Of a DNA stretch of 64,000 nt, positions 4,401-57,000 are shown one piece after another; position 1 is the first letter of the stretch, and every line of letters starts with the position of its first letter. The notes under the pieces were generated by a model. That model was not told where the DNA came from. It searched no databases and was given only the letters and a program-made list of their open reading frames with translations. Source of the stretch: an uncultured Actinomycetes bacterium (GTDB taxonomy: Bacteria; Actinomycetota; Thermoleophilia; Gaiellales; JAICJC01); contig CAWEIZ010000001.1 in assembly GCA_963809325.1 (NCBI GenBank), forward strand, positions 145,961 through 209,960. The letters run 5' to 3'. A program made the translations under genes and the position numbers.

Positions 4401-4414
4401 GGCGAGAGCCTAGC

Positions 4415-5471
4415 TGTCCTGCCTACAGAGGTTGTGAACGGCTGAGGGTACGTCCGGCCCTCCTTTGAGGCTGTGGGTCTTCCGGGACTCACGCTCAAAG
4501 GAGGGCGCGGATGCGTGTGCACGCTAACGCCAAGCTCGGACCGGGTGGCCGTGTCGCGTTGGTGCGGGCGATTGAGGGGGGTTTGTCGCTGAGGGCGGCT
4601 GCTGCTGCCTTCAGCGTGTCGCCGGCGACCGCTCATCGATGGTGGCATCGGTGGCTGGACGGTGGTCGTCAGGTCGCTGCTCTGGTTGATCGGTCGAGTC
4701 GACCACGGCGCGCTCCACGGCTGTTGCCGGTGGAGCTGCAGGAGCGGATCTGTGAGTGTCGCCGCCAGACGGGGTGGGGGCCACGCCTGGTTGCAGGTGC
4801 GACTGGGTTTGCCCACTCGACGGTCTGGAAGGTGCTCAAGCGGGCTGGCATGTCACGACCAACGAAGCCGTCGGACGAGCCGGCAAACAGCTATGAGTGG
4901 CCCTGTCCGGGCGATCTCCTACACATGGACACCAGCCGCTATGCACGCTTCGCGCGGCCAGGTCATCGCGTCACCGGCGACCGCTCCCAGCGATCCCGAC
5001 GCTGGATGCGACCAGAAACCCGCGTTGGCTACGACTACGCGCACGCGATCGTCGATGACCACTCCCGGCTCGCCTACGTCGAGCTGCACCCAGACGAGAA
5101 GGCCATCACCGTCACCGCCTTTGTCCAGCGCGCCCTCGCCTTCTACGCCCACCACGGCATCGCCGCCAAGCGGCTGATGACCGACAACGGGTACAGCTAC
5201 GTGAAGAACCGGTCGCTAGCCAGCCTGCTCGCCCAATCCGGCATCCGCCACCTCACCACCCAGCCCTACCGGCCCCGCACCAACGGCAAGGTCGAACGCT
5301 TCCACCAGACCATGGCCCGCGAATGGGCCTACGGACTCACCTACCGCTCATCTCGACACCGCGCCCACGCCCTGCCACACTGGCTCCACCACTACAACCG
5401 GACACGACCACACAGCTCAATCGGCGACCGGCCACCAATCAGCCGCGTTCACAACGTCCGTGAGTAGGACA
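4415..5471 (+). mobile_element. IS481-family insertion sequence (1057 bp) with imperfect ~26-bp terminal inverted repeats and a 6-bp target duplication CCTAGC
   Basis: IRL is TGTCCTGCCTACAGAGGTTGTGAACG (from 4415). The rc of the right end is TGTCCTACTCACGGACGTTGTGAACG (to 5471). Direct repeats CCTAGC at 4409-4414 and 5472-5477 fit the NCTAGN target described for IS481. Confidence 0.85.
4511..5467 (+). CDS. IS481-family transposase (HTH + rve/DDE integrase core)
   Basis: 318 aa. N-terminal HTH region (LSLRAAAAAFSVSPATAHRW). DDE-type core LLHMDTS...MTDNGYSY...PRTNGKVERFHQT. SD AAGGAGGG lies 5 nt upstream of the ATG. Confidence 0.9.
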   Translation: MRVHANAKLGPGGRVALVRAIEGGLSLRAAAAAFSVSPATAHRWWHRWLDGGRQVAALVDRSSRPRRAPRLLPVELQERICECRRQTGWGPRLVAGATGFAHSTVWKVLKRAGMSRPTKPSDEPANSYEWPCPGDLLHMDTSRYARFARPGHRVTGDRSQRSRRWMRPETRVGYDYAHAIVDDHSRLAYVELHPDEKAITVTAFVQRALAFYAHHGIAAKRLMTDNGYSYVKNRSLASLLAQSGIRHLTTQPYRPRTNGKVERFHQTMAREWAYGLTYRSSRHRAHALPHWLHHYNRTRPHSSIGDRPPISRVHNVRE

Positions 5472-5472
5472 C

Positions 5473-6279
5473 CTAGCTAGGCGGCGGTGTGCCCGTCCGG
5501 AGGCCGTCGATGAAAGCGACGAGTTGCTGCACCTCATCCGGCGTGAAGGCGTCCTTGAACGGGGGCATGCCGTTGCCGCCGTTCACGATCTGCGCCTCGA
5601 TGTCCGCCTTCGACGGGCGCGGCGCGCCGTGGGACAGATCCGGGCCGACGGATCCGCCGCCTGCGCCGAAGTTGTGGCATGTGACGCACCCGTGTGTTGA
5701 GATCAGCGTCGCGGCGGGCAGTGCGTCGAACGCTGGGTTGCCGGTGATGTTCGACCCTGACACCGCACCGGGCGCGACCCCGCCGGCGATGGTGAGGGCG
5801 ATCAGCACGGCCGGCACGCTCAGGCCGACCGCCATGCCGACCGGCCGCCTCGAGATCCGGCGGTCGCGCCCGCGATCGAGGAACGGCCACACGACCAGCA
5901 ACACCATCAGGATCGTCGGGATGATGATCGTGGCGAATATCAGCTCCCATGGCGACTTGAAGATCCGAAGGAGCTCGAAGAGGAACAGGAAGTACCACTC
6001 CGGCCGCGGCTCGGTGACCTGGACGGCCGGATTCGCCTTGCCCTCGTAGAGCGGCCCGAGCAAGCCGTTCTGGCCGTTCGGGTGGTGGGCATCGATCGGG
6101 CCCGCGGTCTCGTGCCAGATCACGGCCATCGCCACGATCATGAGAACGATGATCAGGTTCACGACCGTGTCGTGGAACATCGCGTACGGGAAGAAGGGGT
6201 GGCCCTCCTTCTTCTGCGCCGCGAGCTCGGTCTCGTAGCGAACCCGGCGGTTGATCACCTTGCGGGCGGCGACGGCCAT
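5473..6279 (-). CDS. qcrC: Menaquinol:cytochrome c reductase QcrC-type subunit (cytochrome b subunit-IV-like domain fused to a c-type cytochrome)
   Basis: 268 aa. PEWYFLFLFELLR (subunit IV / C-terminal cytochrome b motif). C-terminal heme-c motif CVTCH and a distal NGGNGMPPF. Same architecture as Bacillus QcrC. Confidence 0.85.
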   Translation of the reverse strand: MAVAARKVINRRVRYETELAAQKKEGHPFFPYAMFHDTVVNLIIVLMIVAMAVIWHETAGPIDAHHPNGQNGLLGPLYEGKANPAVQVTEPRPEWYFLFLFELLRIFKSPWELIFATIIIPTILMVLLVVWPFLDRGRDRRISRRPVGMAVGLSVPAVLIALTIAGGVAPGAVSGSNITGNPAFDALPAATLISTHGCVTCHNFGAGGGSVGPDLSHGAPRPSKADIEAQIVNGGNGMPPFKDAFTPDEVQQLVAFIDGLRTGTPPPS

Positions 6280-9237: not shown

Positions 9238-9500
9238 TAGATGGGTGATTCCCAATTCACGGGATGTCCCAGCCGCAAGCCTTGGCTTGCGGCGATCGCG
9301 AGCGACCTGCTACCTAAGCAGGTCGCGAACGGGCGAGAACCGAGCAGCGCAAGGACGCAGGGAGGGTCAATATTGGTACGAGATATTGACCCGACCGAGG
9401 ACACAGCGATGCGAAGGTTCGCAGCCGCAGCCCCACCGCAACACGCCCCCAGTCCACAGCCGGACGTCCAGGCGCACGTGAGTTGGGAATCACCCATCTA
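9238..9500 (+). repeat. Family-1 structured repeat, copy 1 (longest; carries a ~48-nt insertion with two extra hairpins)
   Basis: Terminal arms are TAGATGGGTGATTCCCAATTCAC and GTGAGTTGGGAATCACCCATCTA. Conserved core is GCGAGAACCGAGCAGCGCAAGGACGCAGGGA-[hairpin]-CGACCGAGGACACAGCGATGCGAAGGTTCGCAGCCGCAGCCCC. Confidence 0.85.
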
Positions 9501-13073: not shown

Positions 13074-13586
13074 GTGCTCGCAGGCGCGCTGGCGGCGGGC
13101 GCAGCGGTCGCCGTTCGCGCCGCGCTCCTGGCGGGCGCCCAGTCCGAGGCGGGCGCCCAGTCCGAGGCGGTCGCAGCGGCCGGGGCGGCGGGGTGCGCCG
13201 TCCTGCTCCTGGGCGGGATCACCGGCTGGGCCGGCGGAGCCCCGTGGGGTGTGGCCGCGCTCGCGGCAGCCTACGGCGGCGCCCTCGCCGCGGGCCCGTC
13301 CGCGCTCGACGCGTGGGCGCCGGCGGTGGCCGCCGGGATCGTGGTCGCCGGCGAGGCGGGAGCGTGGGCGGCCGAGCTTCGGACGCCGCTTCGCCTCGAC
13401 CGTGGCGTCGTGCTCCGGCGAGCGACCCTGGTGCTCGGGGCGGGGATCGCCGCGGCCGGCGCCGGCCTGGCCCTGATCGCCCCGGGCGCAGGGCCGGCGC
13501 TGGCGGGCCCGCTCATCACGGCCGCGGGTGTGGCGTCGGTCGTCGCCGCGGTGGCCGTGATCCGCACGCTGGCCCGGCGCGCGTAG
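13074..13586 (+). CDS. Ala/Gly-rich multi-pass membrane protein, function unknown
   Basis: Tail of ORF 12723..13586. Candidate GTG start right after the DUF58 stop. Contains a perfect 18-bp tandem duplication (13133-13168, giving AQSEAG AQSEAV). Confidence 0.5.
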   Translation: MLAGALAAGAAVAVRAALLAGAQSEAGAQSEAVAAAGAAGCAVLLLGGITGWAGGAPWGVAALAAAYGGALAAGPSALDAWAPAVAAGIVVAGEAGAWAAELRTPLRLDRGVVLRRATLVLGAGIAAAGAGLALIAPGAGPALAGPLITAAGVASVVAAVAVIRTLARRA

Positions 13587-13606
13587 ATGGTTGATCCGAC
13601 CATCTA
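13584..13606. repeat. Mini-palindrome TAGATGGTtgatccgACCATCTA resembling abutted family-1 termini
   Basis: 8-bp arms are identical to the outer family-1 arm sequence. Its first TAG is the stop codon of the preceding CDS. Confidence 0.6.
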
Positions 13607-13617
13607 GACTCACGCAC

Positions 13618-14280
13618 ATGCCGCACCTTCTCGTCTTCGGAGCGCGGAACCTGGGGCGCGTGATCGGCGAGCACTTCCTCGCCCAGGGGTGGGATGTGAC
13701 CGGCGTCGCGCGCTCGCAGGAGACCGCGGATGCCTTCCCGGGCACCGGGATCGTCGCGGACGCGACGTCGGCCGACAGCATGCGAGGAGTCGTCGAGCAG
13801 GTGGCCCCGTTCGACCTGGTGGTGAACGCGGTGTCGCCGAAGGGCCGCTTCGGCGGCGGCGACCTCGTCACGACCGACGACGACGCCATGGCGCCCTATC
13901 TCGAGCAGGTGCTGCCGACCGCGTTCGCGTTCTTTCGCATCTGCGGTGGCGCGCTCATCGAGCGCGGCGGCGGGACGATCGTCCAGGTGACCGGTGGCTC
14001 GGCCCGCCGTGCTCTCCCCGGACGGGCGCCGTGGGGCGCCGGTGCCGCCGGCCAGCGGGCGCTCTCACAGGCGGCGGCGAACGAGCTCAAGCCGCACGGC
14101 GTGCACGCCGCGCTCCTCGTGTGCGACGGCACGTTCGGCGGCCCGGGCGACGATGCGGGCGGCGAGCGGATCGACACCCGCGAGCTGGCGAAGGCCATCC
14201 AGTTCCTGCACGAGCAGGGGCGGGGGGCGTGGACGCATGAGCTCGTCGTGACACCCGTCGGCGACCGCTGGACGCCGTAG
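13618..14280 (+). CDS. Short-chain dehydrogenase/reductase-like NAD(P)-binding protein
   Basis: N-terminal Rossmann motif MPHLLVFGARNLGRVIG and SDR-like length. ATG at 13618 was chosen inside ORF 13591..14280. Confidence 0.65.
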   Translation: MPHLLVFGARNLGRVIGEHFLAQGWDVTGVARSQETADAFPGTGIVADATSADSMRGVVEQVAPFDLVVNAVSPKGRFGGGDLVTTDDDAMAPYLEQVLPTAFAFFRICGGALIERGGGTIVQVTGGSARRALPGRAPWGAGAAGQRALSQAAANELKPHGVHAALLVCDGTFGGPGDDAGGERIDTRELAKAIQFLHEQGRGAWTHELVVTPVGDRWTP

Positions 14281-14434
14281 ATCCGGATAAAGATCCGGAG
14301 GCCGAATCAGGTCATGCAGGTGTGGGGAGCACCTCCGTGATCGAGCCAACCGCCGCCAGGGGCGCGACGCCCGGTTGCGGTCGCGAGCGGAGGGGCGCGC
14401 CCTACGTCTTTTCGCGAAGCCGCGACTTCCCGGA

Positions 14435-14824
14435 CTACTGAGGGCCGAGGCCGGCGACCGTGGAGTCCCACAGGCCGTCGTCCGGCTCGGGCTCGCGCTC
14501 GCCGCGGCGCGCCGCGCAGGCGGCGATCAGCTCCGCCAGCGCGCCGACCGCGTGCAGGTCGCCCGTCGCGCAGATCTCGCGCAGGCCGGCGGCGTACAGG
14601 TAGTCGCCGGTGAGCAGGGCCAGGTCGCGGTCGTCCTGGTCGAAGAGCCGGGACGTCCCGTGGTGGAGCAGGTAGCCCTCGTAGATCGTCTCGACGCCGA
14701 GCAGATGGCGCTCCGGGCAGCGGCCCGAGAAGCGCAGGTCGCCCCGCGGCTCGGGGAGGAGCGCCGAGGCCCAGAGCGGGCTCGCGGCGGCGGCGCGCTC
14801 GGCCACCGTCTCGAGCACGCTCAC
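14435..14824 (-). CDS. Hypothetical protein translationally coupled to hemL
   Basis: 129 aa. GTGA overlap with the hemL stop. The segment IYEGYLLHHG...DLALLTGDYLYAAGL faintly recalls polyprenyl-synthase helices but has no DDxxD motif. Confidence 0.55.
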   Translation of the reverse strand: MSVLETVAERAAAASPLWASALLPEPRGDLRFSGRCPERHLLGVETIYEGYLLHHGTSRLFDQDDRDLALLTGDYLYAAGLREICATGDLHAVGALAELIAACAARRGEREPEPDDGLWDSTVAGLGPQ

Positions 14825-16104
14825 CCGCGGAACTCCGCCGCGGCGGCCGCCGTCAGCTCGAGCTGCTCGCCGGTGTGGGCGAGCGACGGCATGGCGGCCT
14901 CGAACTGGGACGGCGCCAGGTAGACGCCGCGGTCGAGCATGTGGGCGTGGAACGCCGCGAACCGCGCGGTGTCGGCCGCGGCGGCGTCGGCGTAGCTCCG
15001 CACGGGCCCGGGGTGGTGGAATGCCGTCAGCATCGCCCCCACCCGATTGACCGTGATGCCCGGCCCCGCCAGGGCCGCCTCGAGCGCGGCGCCGGTACGC
15101 TCGAGCCGCTCGTAGGCGCCGGGCTCGCGCAGGAGCGCCAGCGTGGCCAGGCCCGCGGCCATCGCGAGCGGGTTCCCCGACAGCGTTCCCGCCTGATAGA
15201 CGTCGCCGTCCGGTGCCAGAAGCGCCATGACGTCGGACCGCCCGCCGAACGCGGCGGCGGGGAGGCCGCCGCCCACGATCTTCCCCAGGCAGGTCAGATC
15301 GGGCCGGACGGCGAGCCGCTCCTGGGCGCCGCCGTACGCCACCCGGAAGCCCGTGATGACCTCGTCGGCGATCAGGAGGGCGCCGGTCCCGTTGCAGATG
15401 GTGCGCAGGCCCTCGAGAAACCCCGGGAGCGGCGCGACCACGCCCATGTTGCCCGCCACCGGCTCGACGATGATGGCCGCCAGCTGGTCGGAGTGGCTCT
15501 CGGCCAGCGTTCGCACGGCGTCGAGGTCGTTGTACTCGGCGACGAGCGTGTCGGCCACGACGGCGTCGGGGACGCCGGGGCTGGACGGGATCCCGAGCGT
15601 CGCGAGCCCCGAGCCGGCCCGCGCCAGGAGCGCATCGGCGTGCCCGTGGTAGCCGCCGGCGAACTTCAGGATCCGGTCGCGGCCCGTGAAGGCCCGCGCC
15701 AGCCGGAGCGCGCTCATGGCGGCCTCGGTCCCCGACGAGACGAACCGCACCTGCTCGACCGACGGCACCGCCTCGACGATCGCCCGGGCCAGCTCGACCT
15801 CGATCTCGGTCGGAGCCCCGAACGTCGTCCCCCGGCCTGCCGCGTCACGCACGGCCTCGACGACCGCGGGATGAGCATGGCCGGCGATCAGCGGGCCCCA
15901 CGACATCACCCAGTCGACGTAGCGGTTGCCGTCGGCGTCCCACACCCAGCCGCCCTCGCCGCGGGCGAGGAAGAGCGGATGCTCGCGGCCGACCGACCGC
16001 ATGGCCCGGACGGGGCTCGAGACGCCGCCGGGGATGACATCGCGCGCCTGGGCGAAGAGCTCGGCCGACCGGCGCTCTGTGCGGGCTCCCCCTACGACAG
16101 CCAT
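14821..16104 (-). CDS. hemL: Glutamate-1-semialdehyde 2,1-aminomutase
   Basis: Tail of ORF 14821..17595 from ATG at 16104 ([17 protein letters not shown]...). Motifs VSSPVRA, GGYHGH and PLP-lysine region [11 protein letters not shown]. Confidence 0.9.
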
Positions 16105-17060
16105 TGCGCCGCGCGGGCCGCGTGGTAGGTGATCACCATGTCGGCACCTGCCCTGCGGATGGCCGTCAGCGCTTCGAGCACCGCGGCGCGCTCGTCGATA
16201 AGGCCCTGCGCAGCCGCCGCGGCGATCATCGCGTACTCCCCGCTCACCTGATAGGCGGCCAGCGGCACCCGGGTCTGGTCGCGCAGGCTGCGCAGGATGT
16301 CGAGATACGGCAACGCCGGCTTCACCATCACCATGTCGGCGCCCTCCTCGATGTCGAGCAGCGCCTCGCGCACGGCCTCCCGGCCGTTTGCGGGATCCAT
16401 CTGATAGCCGCGCCGATCCCCGTGGCTGGGCGTCGAGTGCGCGGCGTCGCGAAACGGCCCGTAGAAGGCCGAGGCGAACTTCGCGCTGTAGGCGAGGATC
16501 GACGCCGTCTCGTACCCCTCGGCGTCGAGGGCCGACCGGATCGCGCCGACCCGGCCGTCCATCATGTCGGACGGCGCGACGATGTCGGCTCCGGCCCGGG
16601 CATGGGACACGGCCGTGTCCGCGAGCACCTCGAGGCTGACGTCGTTTGCCACCTCGCCGTCCTGGATGATGCCGCAGTGGCCGTGCGACGTGTACTGGCA
16701 CAGGCAGACATCGGTCATCACCACCAGATCGGGAACGTTGGCCCGCAGGGCGCGCACGCCCATCTGCACGATCCCCTCGTCGTCGAAGGCCTCGCTGGCG
16801 GCCTCGTCCTTGCGTGCGGGCAGGCCGAACACGATCACGGCCGGGACGCCGGCGGCGTGCGCCTCGGCGGCCCGCTCCACGAGCGAATCGACCGACAGGT
16901 GATACTGGCCGGGCATCGAGGCGATCTCCTCCTGGCCCGTTCCGTGCCGCACGAAGAACGGCTGGATCAGGTCGGCGGGCGACACGCGCGTCTCGCGAAC
17001 GAGGTCCCGCACCCCGGCCGTACGGCGCAAACGGCGCATGCGGGTGACCGGGAACGCCAT
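16092..17060 (-). CDS. hemB: Porphobilinogen synthase (delta-aminolevulinate dehydratase)
   Basis: ORF 16092..17252 trimmed to ATG at 17060 ([13 protein letters not shown]). Zn-type motif [14 protein letters not shown] and active-site MVKPA. Confidence 0.9.
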
Positions 17061-17118
17061 GGGCGCAGTGTACCGCCGGCCTTGTTCCGGCCACGGCAAA
17101 GGTGTAGTCTTGCCAAGA

Positions 17119-18534
17119 GTGGACGGGCAATGGAGCGATGTTGACGGACCGGTGGGGGAGCCGACCGTGGAAGAGCACACAGGGCAGGACGACGAGTATT
17201 CGAACGAGGCGCTGCGCAAGCTCGGCGCCCGCGTGCGCCATCTGCGCCGCAAGAACGGGATGACGCAGCGGGAGCTCTCGTTCGACGGGTGCTCCTACAG
17301 CTACCTGGCTCGCATCGAGGCCGGCGACCGCCGCCCCAGCCCGCGCGTGCTCATGGAGATCGCCCGCCGCCTGGGCGTCACCGCCGAGGAGCTCTCCGGC
17401 GAGACGTCGACCGAGCAGCGCTCGCGGTCGCTCGAGCTCCTGGACGCGGCGATGATGATCCGCGCGGGCGACCTCGACGACGCCGAGGAGCTCCTGCGCG
17501 GCGTCCTTCGCGAGGCCGAGGTGAACGGCGACTCCCAGCGGATGAGCGAGGCCTACGAGGGCCTCGGCGCGGTCGCCGCCGAGCGGGGCCAGCACGCCGC
17601 CGCGATCGGCCTCCTCGAGCAGGCTCGCGATGCCGGCGCGCCGCCCGACCCGGCCGAGCGGGTCGAGCTCTTCGGGCGCCTCTTCGAGCTGTACCGCCGC
17701 TCCGGGGACGTCGCCCGGGCGCTGGCGCTCCTCCAGGACTGCCTGCTCCAGCTTCGGCGATCGCCGGTCGTCGACGCGACCAAGGTCGTGCGCTACGCCG
17801 TGTGGCTGTCACGCGCCTACACCGAGGCCGGCGATCCGGCGCGGGCCGCCGACGTGCTCGGCTCGGCGCTCGCCGACGGCGGCGATCAGGTCGACCTCCG
17901 CAGCCGCGCAGCGGCGCAGTACGAGCTGTCACGGCGGCTGGCGGCCGCCGGCGAGGTCGAGCAGGCGCTGCGCTCGGCCGATCGCTCACTCTCGCTCTAC
18001 GAGCTCGACGAGGACAACCGCGCGCTCAGCGAGGCCCACCTCGCGTACGCGCAGAGGCTGCTCGACGTCGGCGACGCCGAGGCCGGGCGCCATCTCACCG
18101 CGGCCCGGAACCTCCTCGGCGCGCATCCGAGCGCGACCGACCACGGACGAATCCTCGTCGAGGACGCACGCCAGGCGTTGCTCATCGGCGATGCTGCCGC
18201 GGCGGCGCAGCGGGCCGCCCAGGCCGTGCGGGCCCTGGCCGACGGCGACGGCGCCCACCTCGGCGATGCGCACCTCGTGCTCGCCCGCGTCCAGGACGAG
18301 CTGGGCGAGGTCGAGCGGGCGGACGCCGCGTACACGGCCGCCATCGAGGCGATCCGCGCGCAGGACGCCTCCGCGCGCGACCTGGCGCGGGCGTACCGCT
18401 GGTACGGCAAGTTCCTGAAGCGGATCGGGCGGGCCGAGGCGGCCCTCGAGGCGTTCGAGCTCGCCGCCGACCTGGCGCCGTCGAACCAGGATGCGCTGGC
18501 GCCGGCCGAGGCGCGCTCCGGCACCACCTCCTGA
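17119..18534 (+). CDS. XRE-type HTH transcription regulator with C-terminal TPR repeats
   Basis: ORF 17038..18534. HTH sequence [28 protein letters not shown]. Long TPR-like helical repeats. Start is ambiguous (GTG at 17119, 17152 or 17167). Confidence 0.75.
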
Positions 18535-18552
18535 CCGTCGCCTGAGAGGGTC

Positions 18553-18755
18553 AGATGGGTTGTTCCGAACCCTCGCGCGCCTGGCCGCACAACTCCGGCA
18601 TCTAGGCCGCCGTGGTGGGGCTGCGGCTGCGAACCGTCGCATCGCGGCGTCCTCGGTCGCGCCGATATTTCGGTCAATATCGGCGCTTCCTGCGTCCTTG
18701 CGCTGCTCGGTTCTCGCCGCCCAGGACATCACGACGGTTCGGAACAAACCATCTA
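18553..18755 (-). repeat. Family-1 structured repeat, copy 2 (inverted relative to copy 1)
   Basis: Arms are AGATGGGTTGTTCCGAACCCTCG and CGACGGTTCGGAACAAACCATCT. Same core as copy 1 in reverse complement. Confidence 0.85.
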
Positions 18756-18765
18756 CGCTCCTCGG

Positions 18766-19902
18766 GTGCTCGATTCCGGCATGCCGCCCCTCGACGCTCC
18801 GACCCCGGCCGCGCGCGTCGACGGTGCGCTCGTCCAGATCGGGCTCGAGCGCCTCGACGAGGCCGAGGAGGACCTGCTCGTCGCCCTTCGGGGCGCGGAG
18901 GCCGCCCGCGACGACGAGACCGCCGCACGGGCGCAGGAGGGGCTCGGCTCGATCGCCGTCCGGCGCGGGAAGACCGCTGCGGCGATCGACTGGTTCGAGC
19001 GCGTGCTCCAGACGACCGGGCGCCCCGACCCGGCCGAGCGCATCGAGCTCTACCGCGCGCTGGGCCAGGCCTACTCCGAGAGCGGCCGCAGCGGCCCGGC
19101 CATCGCCCTCTTCGAGGAGTGCCTCGCCGAGCTGGAGCAGCGCCCGGACGCCGACCCGGCCACCGTCGTGCTCTACTCGATCTACCTGTCGCACGCGTAC
19201 GGCGACGCCGGCGACTACGGGCGGGCGGCGGCGGCGCTGGCGGACGCGCTGCGGCGCGACGTCGAGGACATCGACCGGCGGGTGCGCGCGTTCGCATACC
19301 ACGCGCTGGCGCGGCTCTACTGCACGACGGGCCACACCGCTCAGGCGCTCGTCTACGCCGACAAGCAGGTCGAGCTGACCGAGGCCAGCGGGAATGACTG
19401 GCATGCCGCGAACGCCCATCTCGTGCGGGCCCACATCCTGCTCGACGACGCCCAGACCGACGCGGCGCGCGAGGCGCTCCAGGCGACGCGCCGGCTGTAC
19501 GGCACGCGCATGAGCGGCCTCGACGAGGGCTGGGTGGTCGTGGAGGAGGCGCGGCTCGCGCTCCAGGCCGGCGATCCCGAGGGCGCGATCGAGCAGGCGC
19601 GCCTGGCGATCGAGCTCCTGGGGACGCAGTCGGCGCCGGGCGAGCTGGGCGACGCGTACCTCGTCCTCGCTCGCGGCTACGACGAGCTGGGCCTGGCCGA
19701 GCGCGCCGAGACGGCCTACGCGGCCGCGATCGACGCGCTTCAGAAGCAGAACGGCTGGCACTGTGAGCTCGGCCGGGCGTACCGCTGGTACGGCAAGTTC
19801 CTGCGGAGGGCCGGACGCGCCGAGGCGGCGATGGACGCGTTCGAGCGGGCGGCCGACCTCGCGCCGTCCAATCTGGCCGTCCTCGAGCTCCCCGACGTAT
19901 AG
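18766..19902 (+). CDS. TPR-repeat protein, paralog of the upstream regulator but lacking the HTH
   Basis: 378 aa. Collinear with residues after the HTH of the 17119..18534 product. Near-identical C-terminal block [33 protein letters not shown]. Confidence 0.75.
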   Translation: MLDSGMPPLDAPTPAARVDGALVQIGLERLDEAEEDLLVALRGAEAARDDETAARAQEGLGSIAVRRGKTAAAIDWFERVLQTTGRPDPAERIELYRALGQAYSESGRSGPAIALFEECLAELEQRPDADPATVVLYSIYLSHAYGDAGDYGRAAAALADALRRDVEDIDRRVRAFAYHALARLYCTTGHTAQALVYADKQVELTEASGNDWHAANAHLVRAHILLDDAQTDAAREALQATRRLYGTRMSGLDEGWVVVEEARLALQAGDPEGAIEQARLAIELLGTQSAPGELGDAYLVLARGYDELGLAERAETAYAAAIDALQKQNGWHCELGRAYRWYGKFLRRAGRAEAAMDAFERAADLAPSNLAVLELPDV

Positions 19903-20077
19903 CGCGGGGGAACCCAGGGTTCCCCCGCGAGCCCCCTCCTTAAGGGGTGCCGCGTGGTTTGCCGCGCTCCGGCGAAGAGCGCGGTCTTCGCCGGAGCCAC
20001 GACTGCCAGTACATGTGTGAGTGCAGCCGCAACGATTCCCCGTGCGCGCGAAACGGAGTTTCTGCGTGCGCCCCGCC
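19900..20077 (+). repeat. Family-2 multi-palindrome repeat, copy A
   Basis: Starts on a TAG stop codon. Contains CGCGGGGGAACCCaGGGTTCCCCCGCG, CCTTAAGG and GCTCCGGCGAAGA-6-TCTTCGCCGGAGC. Alignable by eye with the rc of 56826-57000. Confidence 0.8.
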
Positions 20078-20281
20078 TAGATGATTGATTCCTAATTCCC
20101 GCGCGCCTGGACGCGTGACGGTGGCAGGGATGCCGGCTGGTTGTGGGGGCTGCGGCTGCGAACCGTCGCATCGCTGTGTCCTCGGTCGCGCCGATATTCC
20201 CGATATCGGCGCTCCCTGCGTCCTTGCGCTGCTTGGTTCGCAGCCGCCCAGGACATCACGGAATCAGGAATCAATCATCTA
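20078..20281 (-). repeat. Family-1 structured repeat, copy 3
   Basis: Arms are TAGATGATTGATTCCTAATTCC and GGAATCAGGAATCAATCATCTA. The core is conserved. Its last CTA is the TAG stop of the AI-2E gene. Confidence 0.85.
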
Positions 20282-21505
20282 GGAGTCCGCAACATCGGGG
20301 TCAGACCCCAGTGTTGCAGCCGTCTCCGCCGGCGGCGGCGGGTGGACCTCGACCGGGACGTCGACCGTCAGCGGGCCGCCGGGCCACGGCTGGAGGCCGA
20401 TCCGCTCGCCGAGGAACGTGCCGATCTCGCGCCCGACCGCGACGAGCGGCATGGCGATGAGGACGCCCGCCAGCCCGTACAGCTCGCCCGCTGCGAGGAG
20501 CGCGAAGATCACCACCAGCGGGTGCACCTTGACGGCGCTCCCCATCAGCTTGGGGATCACGATGTGGCCCTCGATCTGGTGGATGAAGAGGAAGAGGAGC
20601 GCGACGCCGACCACCGCCTTGCCCGACTCGGTGGCCGCGACGGCCGCCGGGGCGAGCGCGCCGAGCCACGGGCCCACATACGGGATGATCTCGACGACGG
20701 CCGCCCAGGCGCCGAACCCGAGCGCGTACGTGGAGCCGCCGGGGAAGACCCCGGTGATGCCGAGGATCCACAGCCCGATGCCGGCCGTCGTCCCGATGAC
20801 GAGCGAGACCAGCGTCTGACCCTTGACGTAGGCCAGGAGGGCGCGCTCGATGCGCGTGAGCAGGTCCTCGTCCAGCTCCCCACCGCGGAACACGCGTCTC
20901 AGGAAGCGCGACAGGCGGGGCGCGTCGAGCAGCATGTAGACCGAGATGACGATCACCAGCACCAGGTTGAAGAGGCTCTCGAAGAGCGTGATGAGAAGCG
21001 TCCGGGCCACCTCCACCGCGCGCCCGGAGTAGCGCTGGAGATGGGCGACGTCGACCGAGTTCAGGAGGCGCTCGCCCGGTGCCTTCACGTCGACCTTCAC
21101 GGGGCTCGAGCTGTCGATCCAGCGCTGGAGGTCGGCGAGCCGCTGGTCGGCCGGCGTGACCCCGGCGCTGTTCTCGGTGAACTGGTCCTCGACCTGGTTT
21201 GCGACATCCTGCACCTCCCGCGCGATCACGGTGCCGGCGATGACGCTGAGGCCGCCGACGACGAACGCGAAGAACAGGTACACGAGCAGCACCGAGGCGG
21301 CCCGCGGGATGCGAAGGGCGCAGAACGCCCGCACGATGGGGTTCAGCAGGATGGCGATCAGCGCAGCGACCACGAACACGAACACGGCGTGGTTGACCGC
21401 GGAGACCAGCAACCACACGCCCACGATCGCAAGCGGAAGGCCTACAAGCTGAACCCACCGCGGGACCAGGATCTTCCCGGGCGCGTCGGGCGGCATCGCG
21501 GCCAT
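20279..21505 (-). CDS. AI-2E family transporter (PerM/UPF0118)
   Basis: 408 aa polytopic membrane protein. The pattern (FVFVVAALIAILLNPIV..., C-terminal GELYGLAGVLIAMPL) is typical of this family. Confidence 0.75.
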   Translation of the reverse strand: MAAMPPDAPGKILVPRWVQLVGLPLAIVGVWLLVSAVNHAVFVFVVAALIAILLNPIVRAFCALRIPRAASVLLVYLFFAFVVGGLSVIAGTVIAREVQDVANQVEDQFTENSAGVTPADQRLADLQRWIDSSSPVKVDVKAPGERLLNSVDVAHLQRYSGRAVEVARTLLITLFESLFNLVLVIVISVYMLLDAPRLSRFLRRVFRGGELDEDLLTRIERALLAYVKGQTLVSLVIGTTAGIGLWILGITGVFPGGSTYALGFGAWAAVVEIIPYVGPWLGALAPAAVAATESGKAVVGVALLFLFIHQIEGHIVIPKLMGSAVKVHPLVVIFALLAAGELYGLAGVLIAMPLVAVGREIGTFLGERIGLQPWPGGPLTVDVPVEVHPPPPAETAATLGSDPDVADS

Positions 21506-21537
21506 CCTACCAGCGGCCCCATGCTAGGCTGGCTCTC

Positions 21538-22326
21538 GTGATCGCTACTGGAAGGCGGCCTCCGCGCCGGCGGCCGCGCCGCCGGCCGCCCCGTACCCGC
21601 GCTCGTCGCATCGGGTTCGCGATCGCCCTTCTGGCGATCGTGGTGCTCGTCGCGACCGCACTTCGCGGCGGGTCTGCGCCGCGTATCCAGGCCGCCGTCA
21701 CCGTGTCGCCGCCGAAGCACGCCCTGGCGCCCGACGGCCCGCCGATCCCGACCCTCATGGCCGGCGGCCCGAACGGGCTCGAGCTCGACGTGCCCATCGC
21801 CCAGGCCCGGGTGACGGCGATCGTGTACCACGGCGTGGGGGACGCCGGCGTCATCGCCCTCGCGCCGTCCGGCCACCAGAGGAACGCCGGCATCGTCACG
21901 AAGCTGAGCAACCTCCTCACGGGGACGTCCACGGGAGCCGGGCCGGCGTACTACGTCGACAGCGCGGGAGGCGGCGCCTCGACGGGATCGGTCGACGTCG
22001 GTGCCGTCGCCGGAACGCGCGTCTACTCGCCGGTCGACGGCACGATCGTCGGCATCCGGCCGTACGTGCTGGACGGCTCGCCGCACGGCAGCGTGCTCCA
22101 GATCCAGCCGACGTCGACGCCGGCCGACATCGTGACGCTCACGAACATCCGCACGGCGAGCCAGATCGCGGTCGGCGACCAGGTCATCGCCGCGCGGACG
22201 CGACTCGGCACCGTGATCGACCTGAGCCGGGTGATCACGCAGGAGCTCGCCAAGTACACCTCCGACGCCGGAAACCACGTTCACCTCGAGGTCGGCCCGG
22301 CGCCGGCCGCGTCTCTTCTGCTCTAG
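21538..22326 (+). CDS. Membrane-anchored M23/LytM-like peptidase-domain protein (possibly degenerate)
   Basis: 262 aa. Arg-rich N-terminus plus a TM helix. C-terminal GNHVHLEV resembles the M23 HxH motif. Stop TAG is shared with family-1 copy 4. Confidence 0.55.
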   Translation: MIATGRRPPRRRPRRRPPRTRARRIGFAIALLAIVVLVATALRGGSAPRIQAAVTVSPPKHALAPDGPPIPTLMAGGPNGLELDVPIAQARVTAIVYHGVGDAGVIALAPSGHQRNAGIVTKLSNLLTGTSTGAGPAYYVDSAGGGASTGSVDVGAVAGTRVYSPVDGTIVGIRPYVLDGSPHGSVLQIQPTSTPADIVTLTNIRTASQIAVGDQVIAARTRLGTVIDLSRVITQELAKYTSDAGNHVHLEVGPAPAASLLL

Positions 22327-22488
22327 TGGGTCGTCCGGTAACGTTGCCTGCGTCGATGGCGAGCGAAAAGCAAGCGATGCAAGGACACAGGGAGCGTCAA
22401 TAGTGGAACTATTGGCGCGACCGAGGACGCAGCAGCGCGCCGCTTTGCAGCCGCCAGAACCCGGCGAACGTTGCCGGACGATCCACTA
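22324..22488 (+). repeat. Family-1 structured repeat, copy 4 (most divergent)
   Basis: Arms are TAGTGGGTCGTCCGGTAACGTTGCC and GGCGAACGTTGCCGGACGATCCACTA. The core is retained, with compensatory changes in two inner stems. Confidence 0.8.
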
Positions 22489-27067: not shown

Positions 27068-27123
27068 GAGCGAATCCTAGGTCGCCCTACCGGAGAGCCG
27101 ACTGTCCACGGTGAGCGACCACC

Positions 27124-27188
27124 GGGGTCAGACCCCGCATCTGCGGCCGTGACGCCGGCGTGACGCTTTCGATGCGGGGTCTGACCCC
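27124..27188. repeat. REPIN-like inverted pair of GGGGTCAGACCCC palindromes
   Basis: Left arm GGGGTCAGACCCCGCATC (27124-27141). Right arm GATGCGGGGTCTGACCCC (27171-27188). Each arm is itself palindromic. Confidence 0.75.
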
Positions 27189-27192
27189 ACGC

Positions 27193-27738
27193 TCAGCGCA
27201 GTACGCGCAGTCCCTCGTACCGGCGCCCCTCGCGTGCCCTGACGCGCCGGAGCAGGACGCCCGCGCCCAGCGCCAGGAAGTACCCGGCGATCGGGATCAC
27301 TGCGATCGCTGAACCGGCGAGACCGGCGCCGTCCTCGATCATCGCGGTTCCGCGGATGTCTCCGCCGCCCTTCACGGCGCCCGCCCGGAGGCTGCGCATG
27401 GCGATCGCAGCCGCAGCAGCGACGAGCGCCCCGAGCGCGAGGCCCACGTACGGGATCGTGCCGCCCGCGCTCAGCTCGAACGCCAGGCCGCCCGCGATCA
27501 CGCGCCGCCCGAGCCGTGCACCCGCCTGCGCACCGGGCCACACGGCGTCGACGGCCAGCTCTGCGACGACCAGTGTCCACGTTGCCACGAGGACGATCCC
27601 GTCGTCGGCGATACCGAGCGGGCCGCGCAGCCAGCCCGCGGCGGCCGCCGTCGCGGCGGCGGCGAGCGGAGCCGAGGCGAGGAGCCCGGCTGCGGCGGCC
27701 AGGCCCAGCCCCTGGCCGAGCGCGATCACGACGTCCAT
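27193..27738 (-). CDS. DUF4126-like membrane protein
   Basis: 181 aa. Gly/Ala-rich TM helices in an arrangement typical of DUF4126. Confidence 0.55.
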   Translation of the reverse strand: MDVVIALGQGLGLAAAAGLLASAPLAAAATAAAAGWLRGPLGIADDGIVLVATWTLVVAELAVDAVWPGAQAGARLGRRVIAGGLAFELSAGGTIPYVGLALGALVAAAAAIAMRSLRAGAVKGGGDIRGTAMIEDGAGLAGSAIAVIPIAGYFLALGAGVLLRRVRAREGRRYEGLRVLR

Positions 27739-56825: not shown

Positions 56826-57000
56826 ACGCGCGGGGGTCAGACCCCGGTTCACGCCCGCGGAAAATCGTTGCAGCTCCGCAACACATGCACCCAACGCTGA
56901 TGGCGCCGGCGAAGACCACGCTCTTCGCCGGAGCGCGGCGAACACAACGCCAGCCCTTAAGGAGGGGGCTCACGGGGGAACCCTGGGTTCCCCCGTGCTA
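56826..57000 (-). repeat. Family-2 multi-palindrome repeat, copy B
   Basis: The rc begins TAGCACGGGGGAACCCAGGGTTCCCCCGTG...CCTTAAGG...GCTCCGGCGAAGAGCGTGGTCTTCGCCGG. It embeds one GGGGTCAGACCCC (56833-45). Its TAG is the stop of ctaE. Confidence 0.8.

Follow-up and report, generated by a model that had tools for sequence, protein, structure and literature searches.

Insertion sequences of the IS481 family (IS481 of Bordetella; ISLxc2 and ISLxx4 of Leifsonia) encode a DDE transposase with leucine zipper, helix-turn-helix (HTH), and rve segments, and actinobacterial members are documented to target NCTAGN and to duplicate 6 bp there (PMC2516522). IS630 inserts at TA, preferring CTAG (PMC2170065, which refers to Tenzen & Ohtsubo). 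Correia elements duplicate TA and create promoters; in pneumococci, 36 genes take their stop codon from a BOX repeat, with no truncation evident (PMC3049150), and other MITEs (miniature transposable elements with inverted repeats) are co-transcribed or co-translated with neighboring genes (PMC2229807). The window analyzed here, a stretch of 64,000 nucleotides from an uncultured Gaiellales bacterium (contig CAWEIZ010000001.1, positions 145,961 to 209,960), contains one IS481-family element and two further repeat families, called here Family 1 and Family 2, whose ends coincide with TAG stop codons.

We consider it likely that the ends of these three unrelated mobile elements fall on TAG stops because their targets contain TA, and because such targets survive almost only at gene boundaries in a genome of 72% G+C. 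Most of the coincidence between stops and repeat ends is explained in this way by target specificity. Like BOX, Correia, ERIC, and RPE, the window families are small structured repeats at gene ends. They differ from those repeats in that the stop is a hybrid of a duplicated TA and the first base of the element, and in that the signals they carry appear, to judge from their sequences, to be translational (completion of a stop, a ribosome-binding site, sometimes a start) rather than promoters.

Stop Codons and Repeat Ends in the Window

An initial annotation of the window had listed six places where a repeat begins or ends on a TAG stop. All six junctions are found when the sequence is read directly, and the identities of the genes are backed by Pfam matches. 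The elements fall into three families rather than four, since the mini-palindrome among them is a derivative of Family 1. Genes were called with a codon model trained on the window itself and not taken from a curated annotation. The window, about 72% G+C, holds 63 complete genes, which end in TGA (35), TAG (27), or TAA (1). Repeat ends fall on 6 of the 27 TAG stops and on none of the 36 others (Fisher p=0.004), so that the proposed tie between TAG and repeat termini is upheld here. The accompanying remark that most other genes end in TGA is true only in a weak sense: TAG, with 43% of stops, is common rather than rare. The TGA stops of the window are concentrated in overlapping ATGA/GTGA junctions.

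Comparison loci, designated by L-numbers, come from Gaiellales, Gaiellaceae, or Thermoleophilia metagenome-assembled genomes and form two sets of related DNA, one of 1.74 Mb for the census of stops and CTAG sites and one of 2.9 Mb for the search for transposases and paired ends. In the smaller set the stops are divided among TGA (55%), TAG (35%), and TAA (9.5%); among genes followed by a spacer of at least 40 nt the shares are 50%, 38%, and 12%. Stop usage depends on context: TGA accounts for 64% of stops overlapping or abutting the following gene and for 50% of those before a spacer.

The elements of the window are the following.

4409-4414: left target duplication CCTAGC, 6 bp, fitting NCTAGN
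4415-5471, plus strand: IS481-family insertion sequence, 1057 bp, assigned from sequence and Pfam
4511-5467: IS481 transposase open reading frame (ORF), with Pfam LZ_Tnp_IS481, HTH, and rve/rve_3
5472-5477: right target duplication CCTAGC, containing a TAG stop
9240-9498: Family-1 copy 1, 259 bp; TA at 9238-39 and 9499-9500, target gTAa
13586-13604: 19-bp mini-palindrome GATGGTTGATCCGACCATC; TA at 13584-85 and 13605-06
18554-18753: Family-1 copy 2, 200 bp; right flank TA, left flank decayed to CA
19902-20077, plus strand: Family-2 copy A; TA(G) flanks on both sides
19903-19929: head hairpin of Family-2 copy A, cgcGGGGGAACCCAGGGTTCCCCCgcg, immediately behind TAG 19900-02, with which the TPR gene 18766-19902 ends
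20080-20279: Family-1 copy 3, 200 bp, GATGATTGATTCC...GGAATCAATCATC; TA duplication at 20078-79 and 20280-81, CTAG on both sides
22326-22486: Family-1 copy 4, 161 bp, ends of type B, GTGGGTCGTCCGG...CCGGACGATCCAC; TA duplicated (22324-25 and 22487-88), in CTAG
56830-56997, minus strand: Family-2 copy B; distal boundary approximate
56974-56994: head hairpin core of Family-2 copy B, directly after the ctaE (COX3) stop CTA 56998-57000

The IS481-Family Element

The element at 4415-5471 is a true and plain member of the IS481 family. Its ORF matches rve_3 (4e-19), rve (5e-12), and HTH_32 and LZ_Tnp_IS481 (1e-6); its ends are imperfect terminal inverted repeats of 25 nt (TGTCCTGCCTACAGAGGTTGTGAAC and GTTCACAACGTCCGTGAGTAGGACA); its length of about 1.06 kb lies within the 1-1.3 kb of the family, and it is flanked by a 6-bp NCTAGN duplication. 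Positions 5473-75 (CTA) hold the TAG stop of the minus-strand gene 5473-6279, a fusion of a cytochrome b C-terminal segment with a cytochrome c, and about 8 nt separated this stop from the start of the gene that follows at this operon junction. The element used the NCTAGN target of its family, which happened to be the stop of the upstream gene. It differs from described members in that the transposase stop lies in the right inverted repeat and not in the duplicated target, and in having struck a host stop codon at an operon junction, which is no essential difference. Insertion of this element and of the small non-coding ones at TA/CTAG sites is mostly known transposon behavior, in element families newly seen. 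A second example of an IS481-family target, CCTAGG, is found in L194, where (at about 1113-1250) a relative of the window element is inserted at the CTAG that the terminus of a Family-1 copy forms (...GGAATCAATCAC CTAGG TGTCGTGCCTACAGAGGTTGTGAAC...).

Family 1, a TA-Duplicating Miniature Element

Family 1 is a new family of TA-duplicating MITEs of a known sort. Its members span 161-320 bp, have inverted repeats GATGRTTGATTCC...GGAATCAAYCATC whose arms covary between copies, and contain no ORF. The ends have the form TA-GATGG...CCATC-TA, with GTGG...CCAC in copy 4. When the collection was scanned with a 19-nt core motif, over 110 copies were recovered, and 50 well-defined copies from Gaiellales genomes make up a type A set, with ends GATG...CATC and, for the most part, a length near 200 bp. 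In this set TA is found on both sides of 25 copies, and most of the others retain it on one side; 19 of the 50 show the full C-TA...TA-G, despite the 7-fold depletion of CTAG described below.

Family 1 supplies a base to three of the six stop codons. At the mini-palindrome, which consists of the terminal repeats of Family 1 alone, TA and the following G form the TAG stop 13584-86 of ORF 13074-13586, and TA-G is read again after GATGGTTGATCCGACCATC; a near-twin 19-bp element lies in L242 at a known CTAG site (CTA GATGATCGATTCAATCATC TAG). At copy 3, C20279 with the adjoining TA forms the TAG stop (CTA 20279-81) of a minus-strand AI-2E transporter gene (20279-21505), and at copy 4, TA with G22326 forms the stop 22324-26 of gene 21640-22326. 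Copies 1 and 2 are the window copies without contact to a stop codon, the former lying between divergent gene starts and the latter 19 nt past a TGA stop and 12 nt ahead of the next GTG start.

Copies outside CTAG (copy 1, in gTA...TAa; copy 2, with empty site aTAc) keep their G...C ends, and the duplication is therefore TA, with G...C belonging to the element. A 4-bp CTAG duplication was considered and rejected on these same copies, whose outer bases differ. Family 1 thus duplicates TA, prefers a TA inside CTAG, and contributes G and C as its terminal bases. After insertion into C-TA-G, both junctions read CTAG again, and a stop that gave up its TA is rebuilt as TA plus the G of the element, with the reading frame ending at the same codon. 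Each insertion into CTAG makes a second CTAG, which can seed nested insertions; nested arrangements are seen at two places, namely copy 3 in the TA beside Family-2 copy A, and the IS481 relative at the terminal CTAG of Family 1 in L194.

In its terminal inverted repeats without ORF, its TA duplication, and its preference for CTAG, Family 1 resembles the IS630/Tc1-mariner elements and their MITEs (IS630, ISY100, pneumococcal RUP). It shares with IS630-type MITEs the character of a short, non-coding, long-hairpin derivative that is present or absent among close relatives. It is unlike them in having been seen only in Gaiellales/Thermoleophilia, and in that its types B and C fill stop/start junctions exactly and have GGAG near one end. 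We infer that Family 1 is an IS630-like, non-autonomous inverted-repeat MITE. IS1237 of Leifsonia, of the IS5 family, has GAGATGGTTTCAG ends and duplicates TTA/TAA; no cognate transposase of Family 1 was found among the related loci, and an IS5/IS427-like parent is therefore a possibility.

In the region of L241 orthologous to window positions 18500-18800 (approximately), an element of the copy-4 type (CTAGTGGATCGTCCGGCAACG...CCGGACGACCCACTAG) lies on the TAG stop of the HTH-TPR orthologue. Here the same subfamily inserted independently, on a different stop of this neighborhood.

Supply of CTAG Sites

CTAG is scarce in these genomes. The window contains 18 sites where 165 would be expected from base composition, and the 1.74 Mb of related DNA contain 629 where 4647 would be expected, a depletion of about 7-fold. 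The 572 unoccupied sites in the 1.74 Mb are distributed as follows.

On a stop codon: 244 sites, 30 of which serve both convergent genes
Intergenic: 250 sites
Inside coding sequence: 78 sites

At the 30 convergent gene pairs a single palindromic CTAG is shared as the stop on both strands. Stops make up 49% of the sites outside coding interiors (244/494). Among the type A copies of Family 1, a called stop coincides with one end or both in 24 of 50 (48%), a proportion indistinguishable from that of the sites themselves (odds ratio [OR] 0.95, p=0.88). CTAG and TA are depleted to the point that roughly every second usable CTAG site is a stop codon; an attraction to stops as such need not be assumed, and the association of Family 1 with stops is fully accounted for by its choice of target together with the distribution of that target. 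Insertions within coding sequence are presumably lost by selection; with about half of the remaining CTAG sites on stops, about half of the Family-1 copies would come to lie on a stop.

Empty Sites and the Order of Events

The initial annotation had proposed that empty sites be reconstructed from relatives, and such sites place the TAG stops before the insertions at copy 3, copy 4, and Family-2 copy A. The empty site of copy 4 is exact in L232 (gctCTAGgcgccggtcttgcggatcc / gctCTAGgcgcc, with the core gctCTAGgcg), where ...gtcgctcctgctCTAGgcgccggtcttgcggatcc... equals the window sequence minus the element. Where the window has Family-2 copy A and Family-1 copy 3, L232, L234, L236, and L239 have a single CTAG, at which both convergent genes stop. 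The C terminus of the TPR protein, LELPDV, has the same length as the LELPD[LIV] of most orthologues, with or without the element. Since the empty sites have the stop at the same codon position, the TAG stops at these three junctions existed beforehand and no protein was shortened. Insertion of Family-2 copy A 6 nt upstream of an original TPR stop was entertained on account of L231 and L232, which end in LELPDPA; it was dropped, as most orthologues end in LELPD[LIV] like the window protein.

For Family-2 copy B, empty sites were sought by a scan with the ctaE (COX3) protein, and only distant taxa appeared among the matches listed. The COX3 Pfam match of this gene extends to the end of ctaE and to profile position 255 of 258. 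Copy 2 of Family 1 has the empty site gggaTAcgct in L231, L232, and L234 and an internally deleted counterpart in L233. It (18551-18755) is thus shared with L233, whose AI-2E protein is 93% identical, and absent from the closer L231 and L232 (97%), which have a clean TA; this distribution suggests precise loss or recombination between lineages. The two genes that copy 2 now parts, 17152-18534 (with an N-terminal HTH) and 18766-19902, both encode TPR domains and are tandem paralogues, with 74% identity over a 251-nt 3' stretch (18259-18509 versus 19645-19895).

The proposal that the repeats form a 3' module bringing its own stop is right only in part: at the three junctions compared with orthologues the stop pre-existed, and what stands is that the element gives the third base, as TA plus G or R.

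Family 2, a Hairpin Element at Stops

Family 2 begins with a hairpin CRY-GGGGGAACCCWGGGTTCCCCC-RYG, followed by AGCCCCCTCCTT and a second strong hairpin; in copy A the order is head hairpin, AGCCCCCTCCTTAAGG, second hairpin, and tail. The two window copies are alike from TAG onward over about 165 nt. The 21-nt hairpin is perfectly conserved and followed by the CCCCCTCCTT box, and its 3-bp stem extension pairs in 299 of 303 cells, with five types of pair. Among the matches listed of the collection scan, the hairpin is widespread in Gaiellales with the same architecture, and Family 2 is, within those matches, an undescribed mobile repeat restricted to the Gaiellales lineage.

Oriented heads lie 1-12 nt past a called stop in 41 of 101 cases, mostly 3-4 nt from the core, and stop-side heads sit 0-5 nt after the stop codon. 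Of the adjacent stops 17 are TAA, 16 TAG, and 8 TGA, where the background counts are 80, 262, and 389; thus TAA is enriched (OR 5.8), TAG is not (OR 1.15), and TGA is depleted. Because the stops favored across the family are TAA, the link of Family 2 with TAG is limited to the two window copies, whose flanks are aTAG and tTAG and not CTAG. The notion of a CTAG/TAG target common to all families accordingly holds for the IS481 element and Family 1, each by its own mechanism, and fails for Family 2, which is not a CTAG element.

At the TPR stop, Family 2 is present in the window and in L235 and absent from L231-L234 and L236-L239, and L241 has gained a copy at the stop of another gene. Since its presence differs between close relatives, Family 2 is mobile. 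The same triplet flanks both sides of these two gains, TAG/TAG in the window and TAA/TAA in L241, which fits a duplication of TA or TAR as the target. Family 2 is best described as a mobile element with a stop-proximal target, of partly resolved mechanism, some copies of which have probably been co-opted.

Family 2 resembles the proteobacterial REP/BIME sequences in having a GC-rich palindromic hairpin outside genes, a few nucleotides from stops, in either orientation and sometimes in tandem. It differs from them in its low copy number (about 1 per 170 kb) and in its long conserved non-palindromic tail, with the CCCCCTCCTT box and a second hairpin. An associated tyrosine transposase was not seen, no search having been aimed at one. 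Assignment to REP was rejected, the head tetranucleotide GTAG/GTGG being absent and the upstream consensus being T-(T/A)-A-(A/G)-C-R-Y. The head was also considered as an intrinsic terminator and set aside: a hairpin is present but is followed by RYGAGCCCCCUCCUU, and a consensus scan does not call it. Rfam gave only tRNAs at gathering score in the window and 14 loci, and nothing below E=0.4 on 19850-20300.

In reverse heads, the reverse complement AAGGAGGGGG is well spaced from the start, and the extension provides an ATG or GTG. The arrangement AAGGAGGGGG-N5-ATG-hairpin-ATG is found before der-like genes. In L016, L020, L030, L074, L078, L095, and L096, reverse Family 2 reads AAGGAGGGGG-N3-ATG-GGGGGAACCCTGGGTTCCCCC-ATG-gene. 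With the two ATGs in frame, the hairpin may encode an N-terminal extension MGEPWVPP, for example in der-like GTPase genes; alternatively, it may span the interval from the ribosome-binding site to the second ATG.

The extended stems of another short repeat, the third, with the sequence GGGGTC(A/T)GACCCC, covary (e.g. gcaacattGGGGTCTGACCCCgatgttgc). This repeat occurs at window positions 20282-20330 (minus strand), 27120-27190, and 56830-56850, and in L231-L240. It forms the last 15 or so AI-2E codons in the window and close relatives, where third-position GC drops, and is missing from L241-L247. It is also found 4 nt past the TGA stop of gene 27193-27738 and in the Family-2 tail.

Copies That Fill Stop-to-Start Junctions

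Of 50 Family-1 copies outside type A, 35 reach exactly from the stop of one gene to the start of the next, co-directional one. The distance between the two genes measures 160-169 nt in about 20 copies and exactly 163 nt in 11. These copies are of types B and C, about 162 nt long, and window copy 4 is of this type; types B and C match no Rfam family. Gene names in the following examples were read off the protein sequences and not taken from a database search.

rplW-rplB junction: L117, L142, L146, L151, L193, and L217, common to six species
rpmI-rplT junction: L133
rpsL-rpsG junction: L177
rpsJ-rplC junction: L129
rplV-rpsC junction: L181 and L191
rpsQ-rplN junction: L161, L181, and L204
rplN-rplX junction: L124
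nusG-rplK junction: L159

The layout is gene1...TA-GTGG...GGAGAnCCAC-TA-ATG...gene2, in which the upstream stop is TA plus the G of the element. The right-hand TA before the downstream ATG or GTG has often decayed to TG, and GGAG lies 7-9 nt upstream of the start. In the interval from -4 to -18, GGAG or GAGG is found in 16 of 22 junction copies, compared with 28% of all genes. Such copies fit insertion into overlaps of the TAATG type, the element restoring the stop and supplying a putative ribosome-binding site. A search of the literature found nothing specific on Gaiellales repeats or on MITEs that give ribosome-binding sites at stop codons.

Weighing the Alternatives

Chance adjacency would be the simplest account of the six junctions: TAG is frequent, at 43% of window stops and 38% of spacer-followed stops in related DNA, and repeats are intergenic. 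It is scarcely tenable, since the element boundary matches the codon to the base in six cases, none of the 36 stops other than TAG is involved, and 29 of 100 Family-1 termini in other genomes make a called stop; these family-wide junction data refute it. It is a different matter whether the elements themselves make stops, by inserting in coding DNA so that a terminal TAG truncates the gene. Any in-frame TA struck by Family 1 would turn into TAG, BOX repeats encode stop codons (PMC3049150), L241 has TAA beside Family 2 where most relatives have TAG, and the last 15 or so AI-2E codons lie in the GGGGTCTGACCCC hairpin repeat, which more distant orthologues do not have. However, the empty sites of copy 3, copy 4, and Family-2 copy A carry the stop at the same codon, the TPR C termini are equally long with and without the element, and the ctaE match runs to the end of the COX3 profile. 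Truncation is thus very improbable as a general account, and appears largely refuted for the three junctions with empty sites.

Two further proposals credit the repeats with a function. Family 2 might be mainly a selected RNA module at 3' ends, a terminator-like or mRNA-stabilizing hairpin or one acting on terminating ribosomes, in which case its position after stops would be functional and its CCCCCUCCUU box, an anti-Shine-Dalgarno look-alike, part of that function. In different species Family 2 has been retained where orthologous genes end, behind ctaE in the window, in L025 (where the stop is TAA), and in L028 (TAG), and in the pairs L022/L106 and L001/L003; its stem shows compensatory changes from CGC/GCG to CAC/GTG, with all but 4 of the 303 cells pairing, and the second hairpin covaries too. 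In L035 two convergent genes each have their own head-proximal copy, further copies lie downstream of tRNA genes, the RNA fold z-score is -4.1, and the enriched stop, TAA, is the one typical of highly expressed genes. Against this, Family 2 is polymorphic between close relatives and hence mobile, its hairpin has no U-tract and is not called as a terminator, and no Rfam family matches it. About 16% of heads are reversed and stand right before start codons, where AAGGAGGGGG is a putative ribosome-binding site, and one RNA-level function therefore cannot cover all copies. We regard such a module as possible but rather doubtful as the main explanation. It is quite possible, if still short of probable, that the termini came, by shaping or filtering, to leave translation undisturbed, with TA and the terminal purine restoring a stop for the upstream gene and GGAG (Family 1, types B and C) or AAGGAGG (Family 2) giving a ribosome-binding site and sometimes a start, and that this lets the elements colonize stop/start junctions inside operons. 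The exact junction fillers, some between consecutive ribosomal-protein genes, the excess of GGAG/GAGG ahead of the downstream start, and the reverse Family-2 arrangement before der-like genes argue for it; but the terminal G and purine-rich repeat could simply be a sequence bound by the transposase, with survivorship doing the rest, and type A ends have no such motif.

Target specificity combined with the scarcity of usable sites is preferred to these alternatives, and several observations weigh against it, chiefly where Family 2 is concerned. Family 2 lies on stops in 41% of cases, where random non-coding TA sites predict 19% (p=6e-7), and its retention with compensatory changes at orthologous loci points to selection beyond target preference. 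Comparison of the filled L096 and L108 with the empty L077 shows no TA at the Family-2 junction, the spacer from head to TA is not fixed (about 10 cases have 0 nt, about 11 have 1 nt, and the others more), and the element has no clear terminal inverted repeats, its distal end being poorly conserved and without an inverted match to the head. The transposase families behind Families 1 and 2, like the chemistry of Family-2 insertion, are inferred. The 2.9 Mb of related DNA yielded neither a transposase gene whose ends match those of Family 1 or Family 2 nor a 0.7-3 kb element with Family-1 ends, and paired Family-1 ends 0.4-3 kb apart, which might mark an autonomous partner, gave chance matches only, as did TA-flanked 18-nt inverted repeats 0.7-2.2 kb apart. 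Finally, every comparison locus was picked because it bears a repeat, and the gene calls rest on the window's own uncurated codon model.

Gene Ends as a Reservoir of Targets

A genome high in GC and poor in CTAG keeps its TA and CTAG targets mainly in stop codons and stop/start overlaps. Elements that seek such targets are therefore funneled to gene ends, and many TAG stops there are composed partly of target and partly of element. In annotation, a repeat boundary that falls within a stop codon is to be expected and should not be taken for a truncation. The analysis also adds two undescribed repeat families in Gaiellales, an uncultured and abundant soil lineage.

It may tentatively be proposed that the ends of Gaiellales MITEs serve as portable translation punctuation, in which TA plus the first purine rebuilds a stop and GGAG or AAGGAGG (with ATG in some Family-2 copies) would allow re-initiation, so that elements of about 162 nt persist in former TAATG overlaps, even between essential ribosomal-protein genes. 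The copies in ribosomal-protein operons, with their putative ribosome-binding motifs, suggest that a small transposon can persist in an essential operon if it provides signals for translation.

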